A stretch of DNA of 31,051 nucleotides from a virus (Duplodnaviria > Heunggongvirae > Uroviricota > Caudoviricetes). The notes beneath the pieces were generated by a model that saw nothing but the letters and a program-made list of their open reading frames with translations, was not told where the DNA came from and ran no database searches. The position numbers were made by a program, and so were the translations under genes. Each line of letters opens with the position of its first letter. The stretch's first letter is position 1. Shown piece after piece: positions 11,833-26,718 of this stretch. Location of the stretch: the IMG/VR virus record IMGVR_UViG_2909309443_000003. The stretch is one strand, 5' to 3'.

Positions 11833-12708
11833 ATGACTTTTAAATCTTTCGCTGCTGCAGCAATGAACAAAATTGATGCCATAAAACCAATAATACAATC
11901 CTTATGCAAAATGAAGCACGTGTTTATTATTTTTATTTTATATGCATTTGGCGTAACACTTGCCTCTATACACTATGGTAATTACAATGATTCATTCCTG
12001 TCTGGGTTCCTAATAAATGCAAATTCATCCATTTTGGATTTTTTTGTATTAGGTGTCATCCTTTATTGCTTTGAATACAGAAGACAAAACAAAGAAACGA
12101 TTAATGAACTTCTTGAGGATTTGGGAAACTTAGCTAAGCACGTTAATGTTGATTTGAAAATACAAAAAATAAAAATAATAAGACAGCTCAACAATAAAGG
12201 TGTCTTCAATATAGACATACCCAGAATGGAGTTGGGTGACCTTTTTACCATTAAATACTTACACTTTAAAACCTCAGAACTATCTGGGTTAAATATGGAA
12301 AAATCTAACATAAGAGACTGTTCTTTCACTGGATGTACAATCCAGGCATTAAATATTAGCAAGAGCAAAATGAAAAACGTAAAATTTATAAAGTGTAAAA
12401 TAAAAAATATTAAAGCTCAGGATTCAAAGTTAAACGGTGTTATTTTTGAAGGCTGCTATTTATATGGTGGGGATTTTTCCAATGCGGAAATGAAAAGTTG
12501 CGTACTCAGAGAGTGTGATTTGGATAAAGTGGAATACACCAATGCAAACCTTAGAAATGCCAACATAATCGATGCAAAAAATATTGACGTGAACAAACTT
12601 ATAGAAGCTAATACACTAGACTATATAGACTGTGATAGTGAAATAGAAAGACAAATCCTATCATCCAGACCAAACACGAAATTTACTAAACGATATTTAC
12701 GAGGCTAG
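11833..12708 (+). CDS. membrane-anchored pentapeptide-repeat protein (AT-rich cargo gene at the S/V junction)
   Basis: 291-aa ORF, opposite strand to the flanking late genes and visibly AT-rich. Two predicted TM helices (about residues 29-48 and 56-80). Residues about 162-255 form roughly 18 consecutive pentads with a hydrophobic residue at position 4 (NANLR, NANII, ECDLD, SCVLR, GGDFS). Confidence 0.7.
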   Translation: MTFKSFAAAAMNKIDAIKPIIQSLCKMKHVFIIFILYAFGVTLASIHYGNYNDSFLSGFLINANSSILDFFVLGVILYCFEYRRQNKETINELLEDLGNLAKHVNVDLKIQKIKIIRQLNNKGVFNIDIPRMELGDLFTIKYLHFKTSELSGLNMEKSNIRDCSFTGCTIQALNISKSKMKNVKFIKCKIKNIKAQDSKLNGVIFEGCYLYGGDFSNAEMKSCVLRECDLDKVEYTNANLRNANIIDAKNIDVNKLIEANTLDYIDCDSEIERQILSSRPNTKFTKRYLRG

Positions 12709-18765: not shown

Positions 18766-20535
18766 ATGACCATTTCCACCGATACAACCTTGTTGCATGA
18801 CCCGCGACGGCAGGCATCGCTGCTTTACTGGCAGGGTTTTTCCGTGCCACAGATTGCCGAAATGCTGCAGGTCAAGCGCCCGACCGTGCAGAGCTGGAAG
18901 CAGCGCGACGGCTGGGACGGCATCGCGCCGATTTCCCGCGTTGAAAGCAGCCTTGAGGCCAGGCTGATTCAGCTCATCGCCAAGCCGCAAAAGACAGGGG
19001 GTGATTTCAAAGAGATTGACCTGCTCGGACGGCAGATTGAACGGTTGGCGCGAGTCAACCGCTACAGCCAGACCGGCAACGAAGCCGACCTTAACCCCAA
19101 CGTCGCCAACCGCAACAAAGGGGAGCGCAAAAAGCCGAAAAAGAATTTTTTCAGCGACGAGGCTATCGATAAACTAGAGGAATTATTTTTCGACCAGTCT
19201 TTCGAGTACCAGTTGCAGTGGTACCGCGCAGGACTGGAGCACCGTATTCGTGACATTCTCAAATCCCGCCAGATTGGCGCGACATTCTATTTCTCCCGCG
19301 AGGCACTGCTGCGCGCACTCAAAACCGGCCATAACCAGATATTTTTATCAGCCAGTAAAACGCAGGCTTACGTGTTCCGCGAATACATCATCCAGTTTGC
19401 GCGACTGGTCGACGTTGACCTGACTGGCGACCCGATTGTCATCGGTAACAACGGCGCAAAACTGATTTTTCTCGGTACCAATTCCAACACCGCGCAGAGC
19501 CATAACGGCGATCTGTATGTCGATGAAATATTCTGGATCCCGAATTTTCAGAAACTGCGCAAAGTCGCCTCGGGCATGGCCTCGCAAAAGCACCTGCGCT
19601 CGACCTATTTTTCGACACCTTCCACGCTGGCGCACGGCGCTTACCCCTTCTGGTCTGGCGAGCTGTTCAACAAGGGGCGCAGCCGGATTGCCGACCGCAT
19701 CGAAATCGACATCAGTCACAGCGCGCTCGCCGGTGGCCAGCTCTGCGACGATGGCCAGTGGCGGCAGATTGTCACCATTGAGGACGCCCTTGCGGGTGGC
19801 TGCACCCTGTTCGACCTCGACCAGCTCAAACGCGAAAACAGTGATGAGGACTTTAAGAACCTGTTTATGTGCGAGTTTGTCGACGATAAAGCGTCGGTAT
19901 TCCCGTTCGAGGAGCTGCAGCGCTGCATGGTCGATGTGATGGAGGAATGGGAGGACTTTGCCCCGTTCGCCGACCATCCGTTCGGCTCTCGTCCTGTCTG
20001 GATTGGCTACGACCCGTCACACACCGGCGACAGTGCCGGGTGCGTCGTGCTCGCGCCGCCGGTGGTCTCTGGTGGCAAGTTCCGCATGCTGGAGCGCCAC
20101 CAGTGGAAGGGCATGGATTTTGCAGCACAGGCAGAGGGCATCCGCAAGCTGACCGAGAAATACAACGTCGAATACATCGGCATTGACGCAACCGGCCTCG
20201 GTCTCGGCGTGTTCCAGCTGGTGCGCTCATTTTACCCGGCGGCACGCGGCATCCGTTACACACCTGAAATGAAAACCGCAATGGTACTCAAGGCGAAAGA
20301 CACCATTCGCCGTGGCTGTCTGGAGTACGACGCCGGAGCAACCGACGTCACGCAGTCGTTTATGTCCATCCGCAAAACCATGACCAGCAGCGGGCGCTGC
20401 GCCACCTATGAGGCCAGCCGCACCGAGGAAGCCAGCCACGCCGATATCGCATGGGCGACCATGCACGCCCTGTTAAACGAACCGCTTTCTGCCGGTAGCG
20501 GCATGCAGCCTAAATCTATTCTGGAGTTCAACTAA
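18766..20535 (+). CDS. P: terminase large (ATPase) subunit (P2 gpP family)
   Basis: 589-aa ORF (MTISTDTTLLHDPRRQASLLYWQGFSVPQIAEMLQVKRPTVQSWKQRDGWD...) followed by Q. Confidence 0.9.
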   Translation: MTISTDTTLLHDPRRQASLLYWQGFSVPQIAEMLQVKRPTVQSWKQRDGWDGIAPISRVESSLEARLIQLIAKPQKTGGDFKEIDLLGRQIERLARVNRYSQTGNEADLNPNVANRNKGERKKPKKNFFSDEAIDKLEELFFDQSFEYQLQWYRAGLEHRIRDILKSRQIGATFYFSREALLRALKTGHNQIFLSASKTQAYVFREYIIQFARLVDVDLTGDPIVIGNNGAKLIFLGTNSNTAQSHNGDLYVDEIFWIPNFQKLRKVASGMASQKHLRSTYFSTPSTLAHGAYPFWSGELFNKGRSRIADRIEIDISHSALAGGQLCDDGQWRQIVTIEDALAGGCTLFDLDQLKRENSDEDFKNLFMCEFVDDKASVFPFEELQRCMVDVMEEWEDFAPFADHPFGSRPVWIGYDPSHTGDSAGCVVLAPPVVSGGKFRMLERHQWKGMDFAAQAEGIRKLTEKYNVEYIGIDATGLGLGVFQLVRSFYPAARGIRYTPEMKTAMVLKAKDTIRRGCLEYDAGATDVTQSFMSIRKTMTSSGRCATYEASRTEEASHADIAWATMHALLNEPLSAGSGMQPKSILEFN

Positions 20536-20536
20536 A

Positions 20537-21583
20537 ATGGGTAAACAAAAATCCCGTAAAGCCAACGCACAAAAGGCCAGCAAACCACAACAACTGACCG
20601 CCAGCGCACCGCCAAAAACGACAGCGTTCACCTTCGGCGAGCCGGTGCCGGTACTCGATAAGCGCGACATTCTGGATTACGTCGAGTGCATCAGTAACGG
20701 CAAATGGTACGAGCCGCCGGTCAGCTTCTCAGGGCTGGCAAAGAGCCTGCGCTCTGCCGTGCATCACAGCTCGCCAATTTATGTTAAGCGTAACGTGCTC
20801 GCGAGCACCTACATTCCGCACCCGTTGTTATCCCGTCAGGATTTCAGCCGCTTTGCGCTCGATTATCTGGTGTTCGGTAACGCCTTTCTTGAGCAGCGCC
20901 ACAGCGTCACCGGCCAGTTAATCAAACTGCTGGCCTCGCCAGCCAAATACACCCGACGCGGAGTCGACGATTCGATTTTCTGGTTTGTGGAAAACTTCAC
21001 CCAGCCGCACGAGTTCGCGCCTGATACCGTGTTTCACCTGCTGGAGCCCGACATTAATCAGGAGATTTACGGTCTGCCGGAATATCTCAGCGCGCTTAAT
21101 TCCGCTTGGCTGAATGAATCCGCGACGCTGTTCCGCCGCAAGTATTATCAGAACGGCGCGCACGCAGGCTACATCATGTATGTGACTGACCCGGCGCAGA
21201 GCGCGACCGACGTCGAATCGCTGCGCGAGGCGATGCGCAACTCAAAAGGGCTCGGCAACTTTAAGAACCTGTTTTTCTACGCTCCCGGCGGAAAACCGGA
21301 CGGCATCAAAATCGTGCCACTGAGCGAGGTCGCCACAAAGGATGACTTTTTCAACATCAAGAAGGCCAGTGCCGCCGATCTGATGGACGCGCACCGCGTA
21401 CCGTTCCAGCTCATGGGCGGCAAGCCCGAGAATATCGGTTCACTCGGTGATGTTGAGAAGGTGGCAAAGGTATTTGTGCGCAACGAGCTGTCGCCGCTAC
21501 AGGACAGGTTCAGGGAGGTAAATGACTGGCTCGGCATGGAGGTCATCAGATTCAAAGAGTACACCCTCGACAACCCAGAATAA
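20537..21583 (+). CDS. Q: portal protein (P2 gpQ family)
   Basis: 348-aa ORF immediately after P, transcribed toward cos. Confidence 0.9.
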   Translation: MGKQKSRKANAQKASKPQQLTASAPPKTTAFTFGEPVPVLDKRDILDYVECISNGKWYEPPVSFSGLAKSLRSAVHHSSPIYVKRNVLASTYIPHPLLSRQDFSRFALDYLVFGNAFLEQRHSVTGQLIKLLASPAKYTRRGVDDSIFWFVENFTQPHEFAPDTVFHLLEPDINQEIYGLPEYLSALNSAWLNESATLFRRKYYQNGAHAGYIMYVTDPAQSATDVESLREAMRNSKGLGNFKNLFFYAPGGKPDGIKIVPLSEVATKDDFFNIKKASAADLMDAHRVPFQLMGGKPENIGSLGDVEKVAKVFVRNELSPLQDRFREVNDWLGMEVIRFKEYTLDNPE

Positions 21584-21613
21584 CTTAGGCCGCCACAATC
21601 TCTGCGCTCATTA

Positions 21614-21642
21614 TTGAAGATGCAATCTGCGAAAGCTATAGT
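21614..21642 (+). promoter_or_regulatory. candidate sigma70 promoter of the Q-proximal cargo gene (TTGAAG, 17-bp spacer, TATAGT)
   Basis: -35 at 21614-21619 and -10 at 21637-21642, about 20 bp upstream of the ATG at 21661. Confidence 0.5.
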
Positions 21643-21660
21643 GCATCGAATATCAAAACA

Positions 21661-22665
21661 ATGGGCGCGGAGATTAATATTTTGGAAACTGATTTTAAAA
21701 TAACCCTCGAAGGTTTCGCTACTGAGCAAGAAGCAAATAATATCGGTAATTTCACACTAGAAGCTATCCGAGCTTTAACAAAGAATCTCAATCTTGATAT
21801 CTCCAAATTAAAATGCGTGATTGTTTCCTATAACTTCAGTGAAGCTCTTCAAAAGGTAACATCCTCTTACCAACACAAATCCCCTAGTTCATTTACCAAT
21901 AGCAAACAGGGCGCAGCCGTCGGGCAGTTAGTAACAAAAATTGGCAATGATGGGCTATATGAAGAATATACCCTTGTGCTATCGATTGATTTTTTTGTTG
22001 AGCTTTTCAATGATGGTAGCTTCTTAAAACTGAAAGAAGAAGGATACCTCGCAGTCATCCATCGCATTCACCATGAATTAGTGCACGTACATGAAAAAAA
22101 CTTACTAACATGCTTAGCCCAAAACTTTACAGTCAACGAGTATGGTAGCGCGCTTCTTATCTCAGCCACGCGTGCATGGTCTGAATATCTCGCTAATTAC
22201 ATGTCTTCGGGGTCTGCCCCTCAAGAAACTGTCGATTTATTTTTAGAGAATCTTGACACTGTTGTAAATGAAGTATCTGACGAGATTGAAAAACTCATCT
22301 GGGGTTATAAGTACGGTAATATTTCTCTGAATGACATGTATCTTGAAGTAAAAAAACGTATCAGGCTAATCATCAACTCTTATGCTTATGCGATGGGTTA
22401 TGTCCATTCTCTAAACATCAATATTAAAGAATACGATCCAAAGCTATCCCTTACACTATCCAACTCAAAGATAAGATATCAATTATCAGAATTAGGCATT
22501 GCTTTTCAGAATCTTTATGGGAAGTTTAATGACCAGCACATTACAGGTTTTGGTGATTTTCGGGAGATAACAATAATCATTGATGAAATATTCAAGCAGT
22601 TTGGGCTTGTTTTAGAGTGTCCCGATTGGTCTGGCGACGGTGAACTCTACATACATGTAAATTAG
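21661..22665 (+). CDS. HExxH-motif protein of unknown function (AT-rich cargo gene between Q and cos)
   Basis: 334-aa ORF, AT-rich relative to its flanks, with no TM segment or signal peptide. His-rich motif HHELVHVHE at residues 137-145 contains HExxH. Occupies the phage-end cargo position next to cos. Confidence 0.7.
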   Translation: MGAEINILETDFKITLEGFATEQEANNIGNFTLEAIRALTKNLNLDISKLKCVIVSYNFSEALQKVTSSYQHKSPSSFTNSKQGAAVGQLVTKIGNDGLYEEYTLVLSIDFFVELFNDGSFLKLKEEGYLAVIHRIHHELVHVHEKNLLTCLAQNFTVNEYGSALLISATRAWSEYLANYMSSGSAPQETVDLFLENLDTVVNEVSDEIEKLIWGYKYGNISLNDMYLEVKKRIRLIINSYAYAMGYVHSLNINIKEYDPKLSLTLSNSKIRYQLSELGIAFQNLYGKFNDQHITGFGDFREITIIIDEIFKQFGLVLECPDWSGDGELYIHVN

Positions 22666-22884
22666 TTTAATCATAGTAGAAACATAATTAGCAGTTTGAA
22701 TCCTGCCACTCCTGTAAAGCCGCTGCTCCTGGTGGCTTTTCCATGCACACCACCATCACGCATCAGATGCGTCTCACGCGCACGAACACACTCGACCACC
22801 AACGAACCAGCAGCGACCACGACAGCGCCATCACGACGCGCTCAGAGGATAATTTTTATTATTACGCATCACTGCTGGCGCGCA

Positions 22885-22903
22885 ATGCTTTCCCCGCCAC
22901 GCC
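22885..22903 (-). other. cos cohesive-end site (186 type)
   Basis: Minus-strand sequence GGCGTGGCGGGGAAAGCAT is, from memory, identical to the phage 186 cohesive end and differs at 2 of 19 positions from the P2 one. Confidence 0.7.
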
Positions 22904-23094: not shown

Positions 23095-23112
23095 GTCTGG
23101 TTTTGTCGCGAT

Positions 23113-23214
23113 TAATGGCCGCGCAATGCGCCAATAACACTGTTGAGGCACATGCTGGCAACAATCATCAGAAAAATCGTCGTCCACGGATTTTCATAAA
23201 CGAGAGATAACATA
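23113..23214 (-). CDS. small hydrophobic peptide (33 aa)
   Basis: Hand-translated ORF MLSLVYENPWTTIFLMIVASMCLNSVIGALRGH with GAGGA about 11 nt upstream of the ATG at 23214; one predicted TM helix. Confidence 0.4.
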
Positions 23215-23229
23215 TTTATATAGTTCCTC

Positions 23230-23423
23230 TTATTTGCGCATTCTGATGTGATTTAACAGGTGTTTGATAACGACTGATAGCTCATCTTTACCGGCCTGCC
23301 CGACCATTTTTGCGGTGTAGCTTTCCACCTCGCGAGAGCTCAGGTCGTTATTTAAAGCCATTAAAGTCAGATTCTTTGCCCAATCGGCAAACGGGTCATT
23401 TTTCGATGAAAGGGGATTTTGCA
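23230..23423 (-). CDS. hypothetical protein (64 aa)
   Basis: Internal ATG at 23423 (MQNPLSSKNDPFADWAKNLTLMAL...) with GAGG upstream. The track ORF extends to a TTG at 23514 that lies inside the upstream repeat element. Confidence 0.5.
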
Positions 23424-23486
23424 TGTCCAAAAACCTCGAATTATTTAACCAGCAGACGGTTGAAGTATTTGCGACGCTATGACCGG

Positions 23487-23555
23487 CTAACGCCTCGCGT
23501 AGCTCGTTGTTCAACCCCGCCAGACCTGAAAGCGAGTTTCAGCTCCGGCGGCGTT
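23487..23555 (-). repeat. 69-bp repeat element, copy 1 (hairpin with GNRA-like loop)
   Basis: About 84% identical to 23892-23960. Contains an extended imperfect inverted repeat around CTGAAA-GCGAG-TTTCAG, immediately 3' of the stop of ORF 23558-23767. Confidence 0.6.
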
Positions 23556-23557
23556 AT

Positions 23558-23767
23558 CTATGGTCGACGTGGTGGCGGTGAGTAATGTGTCGGCTTGCTG
23601 ATGCTATCCAGCTTGCCGTAATTATCCCTGACTATTTCGGCACACCCGACCAGCTCGGCGGGTGTCAAATTCTCATTGACCATTATCTGCTGCAGACGAT
23701 GAACGATGGCCATCAGTTTGATGCTTTTAGTTTTGTGCTGCGGAATTTCGCCCGGTAGTCGATGCAT
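23558..23767 (-). CDS. hypothetical protein (69 aa)
   Basis: ATG at 23767 preceded by GAGGG; sits between the two repeat elements. Confidence 0.5.
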   Translation of the reverse strand: MHRLPGEIPQHKTKSIKLMAIVHRLQQIMVNENLTPAELVGCAEIVRDNYGKLDSISKPTHYSPPPRRP

Positions 23768-23891
23768 ATTATCGCCCTCAATGAATTTTATTTAGCGCTG
23801 CCACAGCGCCACTATAAAACCCGCTAAGGTAACGTCCCATTCATCACTGGTGTGTAACCAATAAAACATCGAGAAACTTTGAGAGGAAGAA

Positions 23892-23960
23892 CTAGCGCCT
23901 CGCGGTGCGAGTTGTTCAACCCCGCCAGCACTGAAAGCAAGTTTCAGCACCGGCGGCGTT
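23892..23960 (-). repeat. 69-bp repeat element, copy 2 (hairpin with GNRA-like loop)
   Basis: Direct repeat of 23487-23555, immediately 3' of the DinI-like gene stop. Stem mismatches on the plus strand (A-C, C-A, A-C) become G-U wobble pairs in the minus-strand transcript. Confidence 0.6.
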
Positions 23961-23962
23961 TG

Positions 23963-24196
23963 TTAATGCAGCCAGCTATCGTCCTCCCATACCTGCTGCA
24001 TGATTTCCATTACTCGTTTTTTATCTTCGTCCAGTTTCAAACCGCTTAGTTCAACGCCATTAGCGGAGCCCTTGCGAATTCGGATAGCAGTCTTTGGGTA
24101 AATAGGTTGAAGATTGCGGTACAGTTCAGCCTCAAGTGCATCCAATGTTGCCTGACTAATTTTTTGCTCTTTATCCAACGTGATATTGATTCTCAT
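23963..24196 (-). CDS. DinI-family protein
   Basis: 77-aa ORF MRINITLDKEQKISQATLDALEAELYRNLQ...MEIMQQVWEDDSWLH; size and N- and C-terminal motifs match DinI/MsgA as I recall it. Lies in an operon behind a LexA box. Confidence 0.75.
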   Translation of the reverse strand: MRINITLDKEQKISQATLDALEAELYRNLQPIYPKTAIRIRKGSANGVELSGLKLDEDKKRVMEIMQQVWEDDSWLH

Positions 24197-24199
24197 AAT

Positions 24200-24382
24200 C
24201 TAATCAGCCTTATAAAAATTATCATCTTCGGTTTCGTTATTCTCGCTGTTTGCTAGGTCTGCAATGAGAGTGAGCGCGAGCTTTAAGTCTGATGGCTTGC
24301 AGTTTGCAATCAGAGATACCTCGGCAATAAATTGCACACAAGCCCACTTTTGCTGCGTTCGGCTGAAATGTTCGCCAACCAT
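24200..24382 (-). CDS. hypothetical protein, first gene of the LexA-box operon (possible antirepressor N-terminal part)
   Basis: 60-aa ORF with GGGAGGG 6 nt upstream of its ATG. In the same frame as the DinI-like ORF, separated only by TAG plus one codon. Confidence 0.55.
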   Translation of the reverse strand: MVGEHFSRTQQKWACVQFIAEVSLIANCKPSDLKLALTLIADLANSENNETEDDNFYKAD

Positions 24383-24401
24383 GAAATCCCTCCCACAGGG
24401 T

Positions 24402-24495: not shown

Positions 24496-26718
24496 TTACT
24501 CATGTATTGGTTTTGATGCTTCAGCCATCGCCGCAACACGATTAAGGATTTTCCGAGCTTTAGCCTCATGCGATGGTGCTGCGGAAAATATTTCTCCTTT
24601 GGCCGTTCCGCGTAGCCATTTACCATCAAAACAACTTTTACCACCGGCCATCAGGTGCAGGGCTTCGCCCCGGCTGATATTAATGCCGGTTGTCAGATGT
24701 ATCTCATCGATAGTTTTAGCTATAGCTGCGTTTTGCTCATCCGTTCCGTGGATGAATTTTCGCCGTGCTGCTGGCTTTTGCTTCCTGAGTCGGTTGGTCA
24801 ATTCTCGTCTTTCACGCCGACTCAGTGGTTTTGTTAAATCCAGTATCGGTGGATCGCTTTCGCTTCCCGTACAGTTATTGACAGAACTCCGAGGGACGGC
24901 TTTGCCGTCCTGAAGGTCAACGGCCAAATCAACAGCACGCTTCGGAACAATCTTCCACTGAGTGAGCCGGGTTAAAATCGGGCTTCCTGCACCTATGGAG
25001 GAATCGTAGACCCCCTTAATACATACCGTTTCCTCACCGTACTGATTAAGCTCGGTACGCGGTTCATACAGTGTGCGCACCTGTAAATCATCGCGACGGA
25101 CAAACGGCCCACCCTGAGCATTAACATAACCAGCCCAGTCACCAGCGTCGGCGGCATCATGGACGGCGGCAAACTCAACGCTCAGACCGTGCGCGGTTTC
25201 GGTATCAGCGAGGCGACGCAACTCACGGTAAACCGTCACCGGCGCACCACCAATAAACTGAAACTGACGGATGTGCCAGCGCGCAGCCCATGCTGAAACG
25301 GCGGGGGCTGTCTCTTTCAGCAGCTCACCGCTTTCATCATCGGTTTCACCATCGAGAGCATAACCGTCGATATTTTTTGAAATGTATTTAGCAACATAGC
25401 CGGTTGCGCTGCCTTTCTCCGGGTCAATGGACTCCGCGTGGAAACGTGCTTTTTGGGATTTATCGCTTTTCAGTTCGTGGCGGTCTTCTTTCCATGCGTA
25501 TTTACGGACGATGGAGCGAACATATTCAACATCTTCCGGCAGCATGAACATCAGCATGTGCCAGTGTGGAGTGCCGTCGTGATGGGGCTCGGCGACACGA
25601 ATACCGAAAATACGGACATCTTCCCGATGTAGTTTGGCACGGATACGCGCCCAGATACCGGTTAGATAGTTTTGCGTGTCAGCCGGGCTGGCACCGCTCC
25701 ATTTGCTGTTACGGTAACCGGCTTTAGTCGTGGCGTGATATTTTGACGGCGCGGTTAGAGTGTAAAACTCACCGACATAACCGAGCTCATTACAGATGTT
25801 TTCAAACCCACGAATGCGGGTCATGAGCTCACAGCGGCGAATCGCAGGGTTAGCAACTGAGCCATCATATTTTTCAATTAGGCTGATACGGTTGCCGTCT
25901 TCGTCTTCGAGATCCAGACCTTTGAGAAATTCACGAGTGCGGCGCTTTTGTTCACGCCAGTCAGTCACGCAGTTTTTACTCGCGTAAGTGTTTTTTTTCT
26001 TACTGACGTTGCCGACTGCAATTTGCAGGTGTTCGCGCCACGTAGCTGCTACACGGCGCAAACGACCGCGCCACCACCCATCGTTAAACATTTTGGCGAT
26101 AGCCGGTGCGATTTCATCCGCACCGACATATTTTTTTTCAACCCGCTCCCAATGTGGTGGGATAACGTTGAATTGGAGGGAAATAAAGCCAGCACGAATA
26201 TACCAGGTGTACAGCGTTTTAAGCTCGCCGAATCCGTGGTCATTAATGTTGGCAAGTTCACCACGAATGAAATTAGCAATATCAGCGGCCAACAGGTCAA
26301 CATCAGCGCGCGACATGTCCGGGAGACGGTTATATCGGGCGACCATATTAACCATGCGTGACGACAGATATTGCATTTGCTGAGTATCAAAATGACTTCC
26401 AAAAACAGCGGTTGATACCTTGCTGTTGATACCAGCGCATTCGTATTTTTTTGCGACCAGTTCAAGACGCGGCAATGCCTTTTTGCAGAAGCTGATTAAA
26501 AATGCATTGGCTCGTTGACTACCCTGATTTTGTTCCAGCACCGCAGCAGTGCGATAAACATCTAACCGCACGCAGTCGGGCTGGAGAGAAAGCACCTTTT
26601 TTGCATGCAGCAAAGCCGCGAACATACGGTCGCGGCGATGCTGTTGCTCATAAGTAAGGTATGGGCTGGAGATTGCCGACCGTGGGACGTTCCACGGATA
26701 AGCGAATTGAACAGCCAA
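24496..26718 (-). CDS. A: rolling-circle replication initiator (P2/186 A protein family, HUH endonuclease)
   Basis: 740-aa ORF with an HUH-like motif (GTPHWHMLMF) and a Tyr-containing active-site motif (YVAKYISK). Confidence 0.85.
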   Translation of the reverse strand: MAVQFAYPWNVPRSAISSPYLTYEQQHRRDRMFAALLHAKKVLSLQPDCVRLDVYRTAAVLEQNQGSQRANAFLISFCKKALPRLELVAKKYECAGINSKVSTAVFGSHFDTQQMQYLSSRMVNMVARYNRLPDMSRADVDLLAADIANFIRGELANINDHGFGELKTLYTWYIRAGFISLQFNVIPPHWERVEKKYVGADEIAPAIAKMFNDGWWRGRLRRVAATWREHLQIAVGNVSKKKNTYASKNCVTDWREQKRRTREFLKGLDLEDEDGNRISLIEKYDGSVANPAIRRCELMTRIRGFENICNELGYVGEFYTLTAPSKYHATTKAGYRNSKWSGASPADTQNYLTGIWARIRAKLHREDVRIFGIRVAEPHHDGTPHWHMLMFMLPEDVEYVRSIVRKYAWKEDRHELKSDKSQKARFHAESIDPEKGSATGYVAKYISKNIDGYALDGETDDESGELLKETAPAVSAWAARWHIRQFQFIGGAPVTVYRELRRLADTETAHGLSVEFAAVHDAADAGDWAGYVNAQGGPFVRRDDLQVRTLYEPRTELNQYGEETVCIKGVYDSSIGAGSPILTRLTQWKIVPKRAVDLAVDLQDGKAVPRSSVNNCTGSESDPPILDLTKPLSRRERRELTNRLRKQKPAARRKFIHGTDEQNAAIAKTIDEIHLTTGINISRGEALHLMAGGKSCFDGKWLRGTAKGEIFSAAPSHEAKARKILNRVAAMAEASKPIHE

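Follow-up and report, generated by a model that had tools for sequence, protein, structure and literature searches.

Protease-based abortive infection, exemplified by Lit and its target EF-Tu, is among the oldest known mechanisms of phage exclusion, and to our knowledge very few such systems have been characterized. Lit, encoded by prophage e14, is a latent HExxH protease that is activated by the Gol region of gp23 of phage T4; once activated, it cleaves EF-Tu, aborting infection (PMC3014915). The A-Q region of P2-like phages is a published defence hotspot, in which non-defence cargo such as partition systems and a cytolethal distending toxin is found as well (PMC9122126). Here, we describe a cargo gene of this region, located at positions 21661-22665 of a 31,051-nucleotide stretch of viral DNA (IMG/VR record IMGVR_UViG_2909309443_000003), which is referred to as the window throughout. 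The gene encodes a stand-alone zincin-like protein with a conserved HExxH motif. Positions are those of the whole window, and residue numbers are those of the 334-amino-acid product.

We estimate a probability of about 0.55 that this gene is a single-gene phage-exclusion (abortive-infection) factor, which would work in the manner of Lit and is carried by a horizontally acquired cassette. In the proposed mechanism, the lysogen would express the candidate protease from its own promoter, and the protease would remain latent until triggered by an infecting phage. The triggered protease would then cleave an essential protein of the host or the phage, and the infection would fail. A preliminary description of the locus, made from the sequence by itself, had more cautiously called the gene a candidate single-gene anti-phage or lysogenic-conversion factor. 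That reading is supported by the conservation of the motif, the accessory nature of the gene, the variability of the slot in which it resides, the presence of relatives in defence islands, and the lack of a matching named family. The same protein, with two substitutions, is listed as system #76 in Table S5B of the hotspot catalogue, at 51 of 18,150 loci and with an empty Pfam column, and its sequence is missing from Table S2, the list of systems tested (PMC9122126). The present analysis gives a predicted fold and a testable hypothesis to a catalogue entry that has been unannotated since 2022.

The conserved motif and the predicted fold

The window holds a cos-joined prophage of the 186-like kind (Peduoviridae). 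In it, the genes for the terminase ATPase (18766-20535) and the portal run rightward, a gpA-type replication gene (24496-26718) runs leftward, and the terminase, portal, and gpA-type genes share 83-95% DNA identity with phage 186 (BLAST against cos-joined 186). The name "portal" follows the annotation of this gene in matching phage and E. coli records. The order of portal gene, cargo gene, cos, and gpA homolog is that of cargo in the A-Q hotspot. The features of this region are as follows:

20537-21583, plus strand: portal gene (homolog of 186 W and P2 Q), 93% DNA identity to 186 W; the upstream core-gene border of the slot
21584-22729, no strand: AT-rich cargo cassette of 1,146 bp, from BLAST against cos-joined 186, junction alignments, and the G+C profile
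21584-21596, plus strand: left-junction remnant of terminator tW (left arm), CTTAGGCCGCCAC, from alignment with 186 tW
21614-21642, plus strand: sigma-70-type promoter with −35 TTGAAG (21614-21619), 17-bp spacer, and −10 TATAGT (21637-21642), from a consensus scan and conservation
21661-22665, plus strand: cargo coding sequence for the stand-alone zincin-like protein, 334 amino acids from ATG 21661 or 327 from TTG 21682
21668-21684, plus strand: Shine-Dalgarno sequence GGAG (21668-21671) and probable start codon TTG (21682-21684), conserved in 6 of 6 aligned loci
22072-22086, plus strand: codons of the HExxH motif, H138-E139-L-V-H142, in helix 126-148; conserved in both alignments described below
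22177-22188, plus strand: codons of the WSEY motif, W173-S-E175-Y176, in helix 160-185; W173, E175, and Y176 conserved to at least 90% in the broader alignment
22716-22740, plus strand: tW-like intrinsic terminator, hairpin and T-run, AAAGCCGCTGCTCCTGGTGGCTTTT, 3' of the cargo gene, from a terminator scan and alignment to 186 tW
22885-22903, no strand: cos, 19-nucleotide cohesive-end sequence identical to that of 186, read in the sequence and aligned to the left end of 186

The preliminary description had reported an AT-rich open reading frame (ORF) for 334 amino acids between the portal gene and cos, with the sequence HHELVHVHE at residues 137-145 and no transmembrane segment or signal peptide, and these observations all hold. 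The ORF itself begins at 21661, the start previously given (21614) being the first base of the −35 hexamer, and its G+C content of 0.376 contrasts with 0.523 in the window overall. HHELVHVHE is encoded at nucleotides 22069-22095, as read in the sequence and in an alignment of homologs, and the 186 cos sequence lies beyond the gene. No stretch resembles a transmembrane segment or signal (the highest 19-residue Kyte-Doolittle mean is 1.19), and the product is accordingly predicted to be a soluble, cytoplasmic protein.

Two alignments were used to examine conservation. In the first, which comprises 28 homologs down to 41% identity, residues H137, H138, E139, H142, and E145 and the stretch W173-S174-E175-Y176 are invariant. 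In the second, which comprises 68 members at 17-25% identity, E139 is the sole invariant column, and H138, H142, W173, E175, Y176, A178, G246, and G315 are each conserved to at least 90%. An exhaustive profile search (E ≤ 1e-3) yielded 350 cluster representatives (clusters at 50% identity), nearly all of which are single-domain proteins of 305-340 amino acids. HExxH is present in 139 of the 149 representatives P0079-P0227, the exceptions being mostly fragments, and the catalytic set is kept among homologs down to about 20% identity. The earlier identification of HExxH as a zincin signature is borne out by this conservation. Selection on the gene is purifying but relaxed, with ratios of nonsynonymous to synonymous divergence (dN/dS) of 0.24-0.47, against 0.02-0.055 for the portal gene, at three loci.

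An AlphaFold2 model built with the 28-sequence alignment had a mean predicted local distance difference test score (pLDDT) of 90.3 and a predicted template modelling score of 0.89. In this model, an N-terminal part with a helix and a beta-sheet (strands 13-17, 50-56, 88-94, and 100-108) is followed by helix 126-148, which bears HExxH, and by helix 160-185, which bears E175. The C-terminal part consists of a helical bundle of about 125 residues (188-313) and a C-terminal hairpin. The order of these elements fits the zincin core topology (PMC5512222), and in this respect the predicted fold resembles those of solved zincins. Foldseek returned no match below E 0.1 against the PDB and a single marginal "Peptidase" match (E 7.6e-3) against BFVD. 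Judged from the model, the relationship to zincins is real but remote.

Conservation and model together indicate that HExxH marks a true and conserved active site of the zincin type in a predicted gluzincin-like fold. The pattern is as expected of a gluzincin, with two histidines and a putative general-base glutamate, and a candidate ligand glutamate on the next helix. E175 would be the third zinc ligand, and we infer that zinc is held by H138, H142, and E175, that E139 is the general base, and that the protein acts as a peptidase. The helical bundle of about 125 residues is an obvious candidate for a sensor or a lid.

Searches with the window protein gave no match in Pfam, NCBIfam, or PADLOC, and in PHROGs only phrog_11743, a family of unknown function. 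Among the 68 diverse members, no Pfam peptidase family was matched above noise, and the only PADLOC matches were to the DUF2971 halves of two fusions (PDC-S31). Profile searches of PDB sequences with both alignments returned coiled-coil noise only, and every source labels the protein "hypothetical". As had been stated earlier, the protein cannot be assigned to a named defence family, which now extends to the 68 members searched with the PADLOC hidden Markov models (HMMs). The main texts of three recent discovery papers (PMC12366544, 10.64898/2025.12.08.692795, and PMC13586616) likewise mention no metalloprotease, peptidase, or zincin system. The family is new and unannotated, inside a known superfamily, the gluzincins.

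The cassette and its variable slot

Homology to cos-joined 186 ends at the portal stop codon (21583) and restarts at 22730; the insertion site spans 20 bp in phage 186 and 1,146 bp in the window. In 186, the terminator tW, AAGCCGCCAGCATGGCGGCTTTTT, follows the portal gene. In the window, only the left-arm remnant is found there, and a terminator scan and junction alignment detected no intact hairpin from the portal stop codon to the cargo gene. The presence of half a hairpin on the left and a whole hairpin on the right shows that the cassette was spliced into the late-operon terminator. The cos sequence that follows is the reverse complement of GGCGTGGCGGGGAAAGCAT, the cos of phage 186. Cargo can thus also enter on the portal side of cos, at a point within the terminator of the late operon. 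As only half of tW lies between the portal and cargo genes, late read-through from the P-Q operon is expected, and the cargo gene should be co-read with this operon, ending at the operon's terminator. From its junctions and content, we interpret the cassette as a horizontally acquired unit of a promoter, one gene, and a terminator.

The sigma70-like promoter proposed in the preliminary description is supported by conservation across loci, though not by scan statistics: a promoter scan by itself did not rise above chance (5 sites, against 4.0 expected). Both hexamers and their 17-bp spacing are kept over five loci in three kinds of genomic context, among them prophages of Salmonella and Citrobacter and chromosomal islands of Enterobacter and Serratia. 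In the latter islands, protein identity falls to 59-63%, with divergence in both the spacer and the flanks. Conservation of the hexamers and spacing amid this divergence indicates that the promoter travels with the cargo gene, as does the ribosome-binding site.

The product itself is probably shorter than the ORF. In 6 of 6 aligned loci, GGAG is followed by TTG-GAA at 21682, whereas the ATG at 21661 is missing in 2 of the 6. The first residue of distant homologs falls at the position of TTG 21682 in the 28-homolog alignment, residues 1-7 have a pLDDT below 50, and some database entries have a length of 327 amino acids. The 334-residue ORF thus exists as described, while the real product probably has 327 residues and starts at TTG 21682.

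In phages 186, P2, and PSP3, the interval between the portal gene and cos is about 180 bp long and holds the terminator only. The cargo gene is absent from these phages and from 93 of the 94 phage records that match the region, the single carrier being vB_EcoM-613R3. It occurs in 26 of 5,426 complete E. coli genomes, always in the chromosome. A natural lysogen, strain JKHS016 (NZ_CP147059), is identical to the window over the 1,117 bp compared (21584-22700). A composite empty-site query found the portal gene and cos contiguous, with nothing in the slot, in 127 of the 253 E. coli genomes that it matched; other occupants in this species are a small DUF2188 gene, a Ser/Thr kinase module, and an IS21 element. 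In Salmonella, the gene is common in the same slot, with a single allele accounting for about 2,000 collection blocks. It fills this slot, downstream of ogr/delta, in a divergent P2-like prophage of Yersinia too. The slot is variable, and the gene is accessory.

Synonymous divergence (dS) points to movement of the cassette. At an Escherichia sp. locus, dS was 0.019 for the cargo gene and 0.31 for the portal gene, and at a Salmonella locus, 0.22 and 0.42, respectively. Values this far below those of the adjoining portal gene indicate that the cassette has been exchanged between diverged prophages.

Some of the other occupants deserve mention in their own right. The DUF2188 gene fills the slot in E. 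coli matches H49 and H53, and in the Enterobacter island (L026, 3711-3938) such a gene is found two genes away from the zincin-like one; this co-occurrence may be coincidence or reflect a shared cassette pool. In E. coli ETEC1716 (L031, 4831-9185), the portal-proximal genes encode two hypothetical proteins of about 240 amino acids, a 535-amino-acid Ser/Thr protein kinase, and another hypothetical protein, a set that is a candidate system in the same slot.

Relatives in defence islands and competing roles

Outside P2-like prophages, we surveyed the neighbours of family members at 13 annotated loci, within about 7 kb and as a raw tally. Known defence genes were found at 8 of these 13 loci:

Psychromonas (L005/L014): type I HsdR, non-specific endonuclease, VspR, and helicase
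Alteromonadaceae metagenome-assembled genome (L010): DpdF-like gene (2e-93) and helicase
Colwellia (L015): adjacent TIR protein
Shewanella marisflavi (L016): adjacent mad3/AriA-like ATPase
Bacillus (L020): AbiO/Nhi (7e-185)
Tn7-like cargo (L033): AAA+Peptidase_S8, SMODS+SLATT, and type I restriction-modification
Metagenomic contig (L035): adjacent complete Wadjet operon
Metagenomic contig (L037): Mrr and two TIR proteins

Two more loci are suggestive, with a pPIWI-associated nuclease and PDC-S32, and SduA and DRT matches were seen among the neighbours without assignment to individual loci. An all-against-all comparison of the neighbours found no conserved partner gene in the 13 loci. Judged by these contexts, members move singly among prophage hotspots, transposon cargo, and chromosomal defence islands. 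In addition, two representatives of about 595 amino acids (P0139 and P0206) join a full N-terminal DUF2971/PDC-S31 module to a C-terminal zincin-like domain. Aristaios, whose abortive-infection activity has been validated, has DUF2971 as its domain (PMC11381338).

Three observations were made alongside this survey. In the Tn7-like cargo (L033, 5515-8026), a distant member starts 37 bp after a SMODS and SLATT_4 pair, on the same strand; in this single instance, the member might be co-transcribed with the pair, which resembles that of the cyclic oligonucleotide-based anti-phage signalling system (CBASS). Secondly, a divergently oriented serine resolvase/invertase gene is found upstream of the family member at three loci (L026, 4116-4685; L030, 4042-4614; L016, 9043-9597). 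The resolvases of Enterobacter (L026) and Serratia (L030) are 72% identical, and the figure for that of Shewanella (L016) is 36%. The resolvase is probably a mobility companion, and together with the zincin-like gene it may form a two-gene mobile module; as a functional partner it was rejected, being absent from P2 contexts and most other loci. Finally, the fusion P0139 has a degenerate motif (RExxH, WDAY), with the first histidine and the distal glutamate lost, a sign that the domain has a non-catalytic, perhaps sensory, role there.

Several points weigh against an exclusion factor. The data offer no candidate for the trigger or the substrate of the proposed protease. Three of the 13 non-P2 loci had no recognisable defence genes, and the tally, a raw count over a small sample, is guilt by association rather than a statistic. 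None of the 68 members matched PADLOC-DB v2.0.0 through the zincin-like domain, and no experiment on any family member was found in the literature. Furthermore, with no terminator between the portal and cargo genes, transcription from the late operon should be expected, which would suit a function in the lytic cycle equally well.

Of the alternatives, the one that survives best is a lysogenic-conversion or host-fitness protease unrelated to phage, acting, for example, in stress proteolysis or in cleavage of an antitoxin or regulator. The three loci without defence neighbours are consistent with such a role, as is the non-defence cargo of the A-Q hotspot (PMC9122126), and a precedent exists in a cryptic-prophage protease reported to cleave the antitoxin MqsA (PMC10846083). 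We nevertheless consider it unlikely, given the defence genes near 8 of the 13 loci and the two members fused to a validated abortive-infection domain. A secreted virulence factor in particular is unlikely, as the protein has no signal peptide.

Alternatively, the protease could serve the phage itself, as a pro-phage or counter-defence factor made late, with terminase and portal, that would cleave a defence or stress protein of the host or a protein of a competitor or satellite. The gene shares its strand with the P-Q late operon and is located upstream of the sole intact terminator, and read-through is expected. Zincin-like metallopeptidase domains are, moreover, common in "polyvalent" counter-defence proteins of phages and plasmids and in ArdC (PMC5512222; PMC7213743). 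However, the cargo gene has its own conserved promoter, and half of the related E. coli prophages have nothing in the slot. Most members, furthermore, reside outside phages, in chromosomal islands or Tn7 cargo beside Wadjet, restriction-modification, CBASS-like, and TIR genes, a placement that is typical of defence rather than anti-defence genes. These features make a phage-serving protease quite unlikely.

It is improbable that the protein is a regulatory protease of the ImmA/IrrE type, which would cleave the prophage repressor or another regulator and so control induction. ImmA/IrrE proteins are HExxH zincins on mobile elements, a weak BFVD match to an IrrE-N-like phage protein was obtained (E 0.3), and helix-turn-helix (HTH) genes lie near a few family members. 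Yet none of the 68 members matches Peptidase_M78, and no adjacent HTH partner is conserved in the 13 loci compared. The prophage already has a 186-type Tum/DinI SOS module (23963-24382), most 186-like prophages lack the cargo gene and still regulate induction, and the gene is far from the immunity region. Lastly, it is hardly credible that the protein is a conserved accessory in packaging or structure, or else a catalytically inactive pseudo-enzyme with an incidental HExxH, in spite of the location beside terminase, portal, and cos and the degenerate fusion P0139, since the gene is missing from 186, P2, PSP3, and nearly all matching phage records, is carried by non-phage loci, and has its catalytic residues as the most conserved positions of the family; this distribution effectively refutes the structural-accessory reading, which the preliminary description had raised against itself.

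The exclusion factor proposed here could also have a wider meaning. The gene may be the founding prophage-borne member of a new, widespread single-gene anti-phage system, a gluzincin-like "sensor-effector" protease in which the C-terminal bundle would detect some component of the phage and thereby unleash cleavage of an essential target in host or phage, occurring from Proteobacteria to Firmicutes. We put this forward tentatively, at somewhat short of even odds; the family is absent from the defence catalogue PADLOC-DB v2.0.0. If defensive, it would contribute a small gene (about 1 kb) with four putative catalytic residues that lend themselves to mutation, and could lead to new phage triggers and new targets of proteolysis. 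Lysogens of 186- and P2-like phages in E. coli and Salmonella provide a natural test bed.

Other possible cargo sites and comparison with known systems

A second AT-rich island (11833-12708, plus strand; G+C content about 0.31) lies between tail and baseplate genes. Its product of 291 amino acids has hydrophobic N-terminal segments and an evident pentapeptide-repeat C-terminus, and a similarly placed ORF of phage vB_EcoM-613R3, annotated as "YjcF", has a product 52% identical to it. The island probably represents a separate cargo gene. On the A side of cos (23100-24400), the 186 exclusion gene orf97 is absent, and its place is held by small ORFs at 23230-23514 (94 amino acids) and 23558-23767 (69 amino acids, minus strand), followed by a DinI-like gene (23963-24196) and a Tum-like gene (24200-24382). 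The ORF of 69 amino acids is flanked, to the right of cos, by a 69-nucleotide direct repeat (23487-23555 and 23892-23960; 87% identity). Both copies match one segment of 186 just downstream of orf97, and the repeat has the look of a scar left when another cassette was exchanged on this side of cos. Salmonella prophages with the same zincin gene retain a gene of 243 amino acids, whose length is that of orf97.

Both the niche of the zincin-like gene, cargo of the P2 hotspot, and its precedent, Lit, are of kinds already known. Because the hotspot is known to be full of uncharacterised defence genes, the gene makes a good, concrete candidate but would hardly surprise a specialist.

Lit, the "cell death peptidase" of the cryptic prophage e14, is the best functional analogy. 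Both are single prophage genes for proteins of about 300 amino acids and HExxH zinc metalloproteases, as predicted in the case of the cargo protein. Homology was rejected, however: hhalign of the family profile against Lit gave a probability of 10.8% over 16 columns, and neither the window protein nor the 68 members matched PF10463 (Peptidase_U49), which Lit itself matches at 1.7e-112. Beyond the motif helix, the two share no homology, and the cargo family is far wider, extending over Gammaproteobacteria, Campylobacterota, Acidobacteria, and Bacillus. The analogy would therefore concern mechanism only, and the cargo protein is not a member of the Lit family.

Compared with the gluzincins of MEROPS clan MA(E), namely the M1 aminopeptidases, M4 thermolysin, M9 collagenase, M27 botulinum neurotoxin, M30 hyicolysin and lugdulysin, and M34 lethal factor, the cargo protein stands apart. 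Sequence identity to them is about 10%, and HMM-level searches matched the family to none of the Pfam peptidase families or PDB sequences. Its spacing is HExxH-x32-E, with a family-specific signature of HExxHxH[D/E] and WSEY. The protein is small, stand-alone, and cytoplasmic, has its own C-terminal helical bundle, and lacks the exopeptidase motif GxMEN.

The ImmA/IrrE proteins (Peptidase_M78), which include CapP of CBASS and RmrA of Rosmer, are, like the cargo protein, HExxH zincins on mobile or defence elements. They differ in size and in the C-terminal domain, the cargo gene has no paired HTH substrate gene, and no match to PF06114 was found in the 68 members. Aristaios, of PDC-S31, is a stand-alone single gene as well; the window protein lacks DUF2971, and the link between them consists of the domain fusion only, seen in 2 of about 150 listed representatives.

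With regard to location, the preliminary description had stated that P2-family phages carry exclusion genes such as old and tin at this very place. The wider A-Q hotspot is indeed shared, in the circular or prophage form, but P2 old and tin lie between A and cosR, across cos. They and 186 orf97 are on the A side, whereas the zincin-like gene is on the portal side, in the late-operon terminator. In its general organization, it is like the systems of the P2 hotspot: cos-proximal, AT-rich, equipped with its own promoter, and swapped between prophages.

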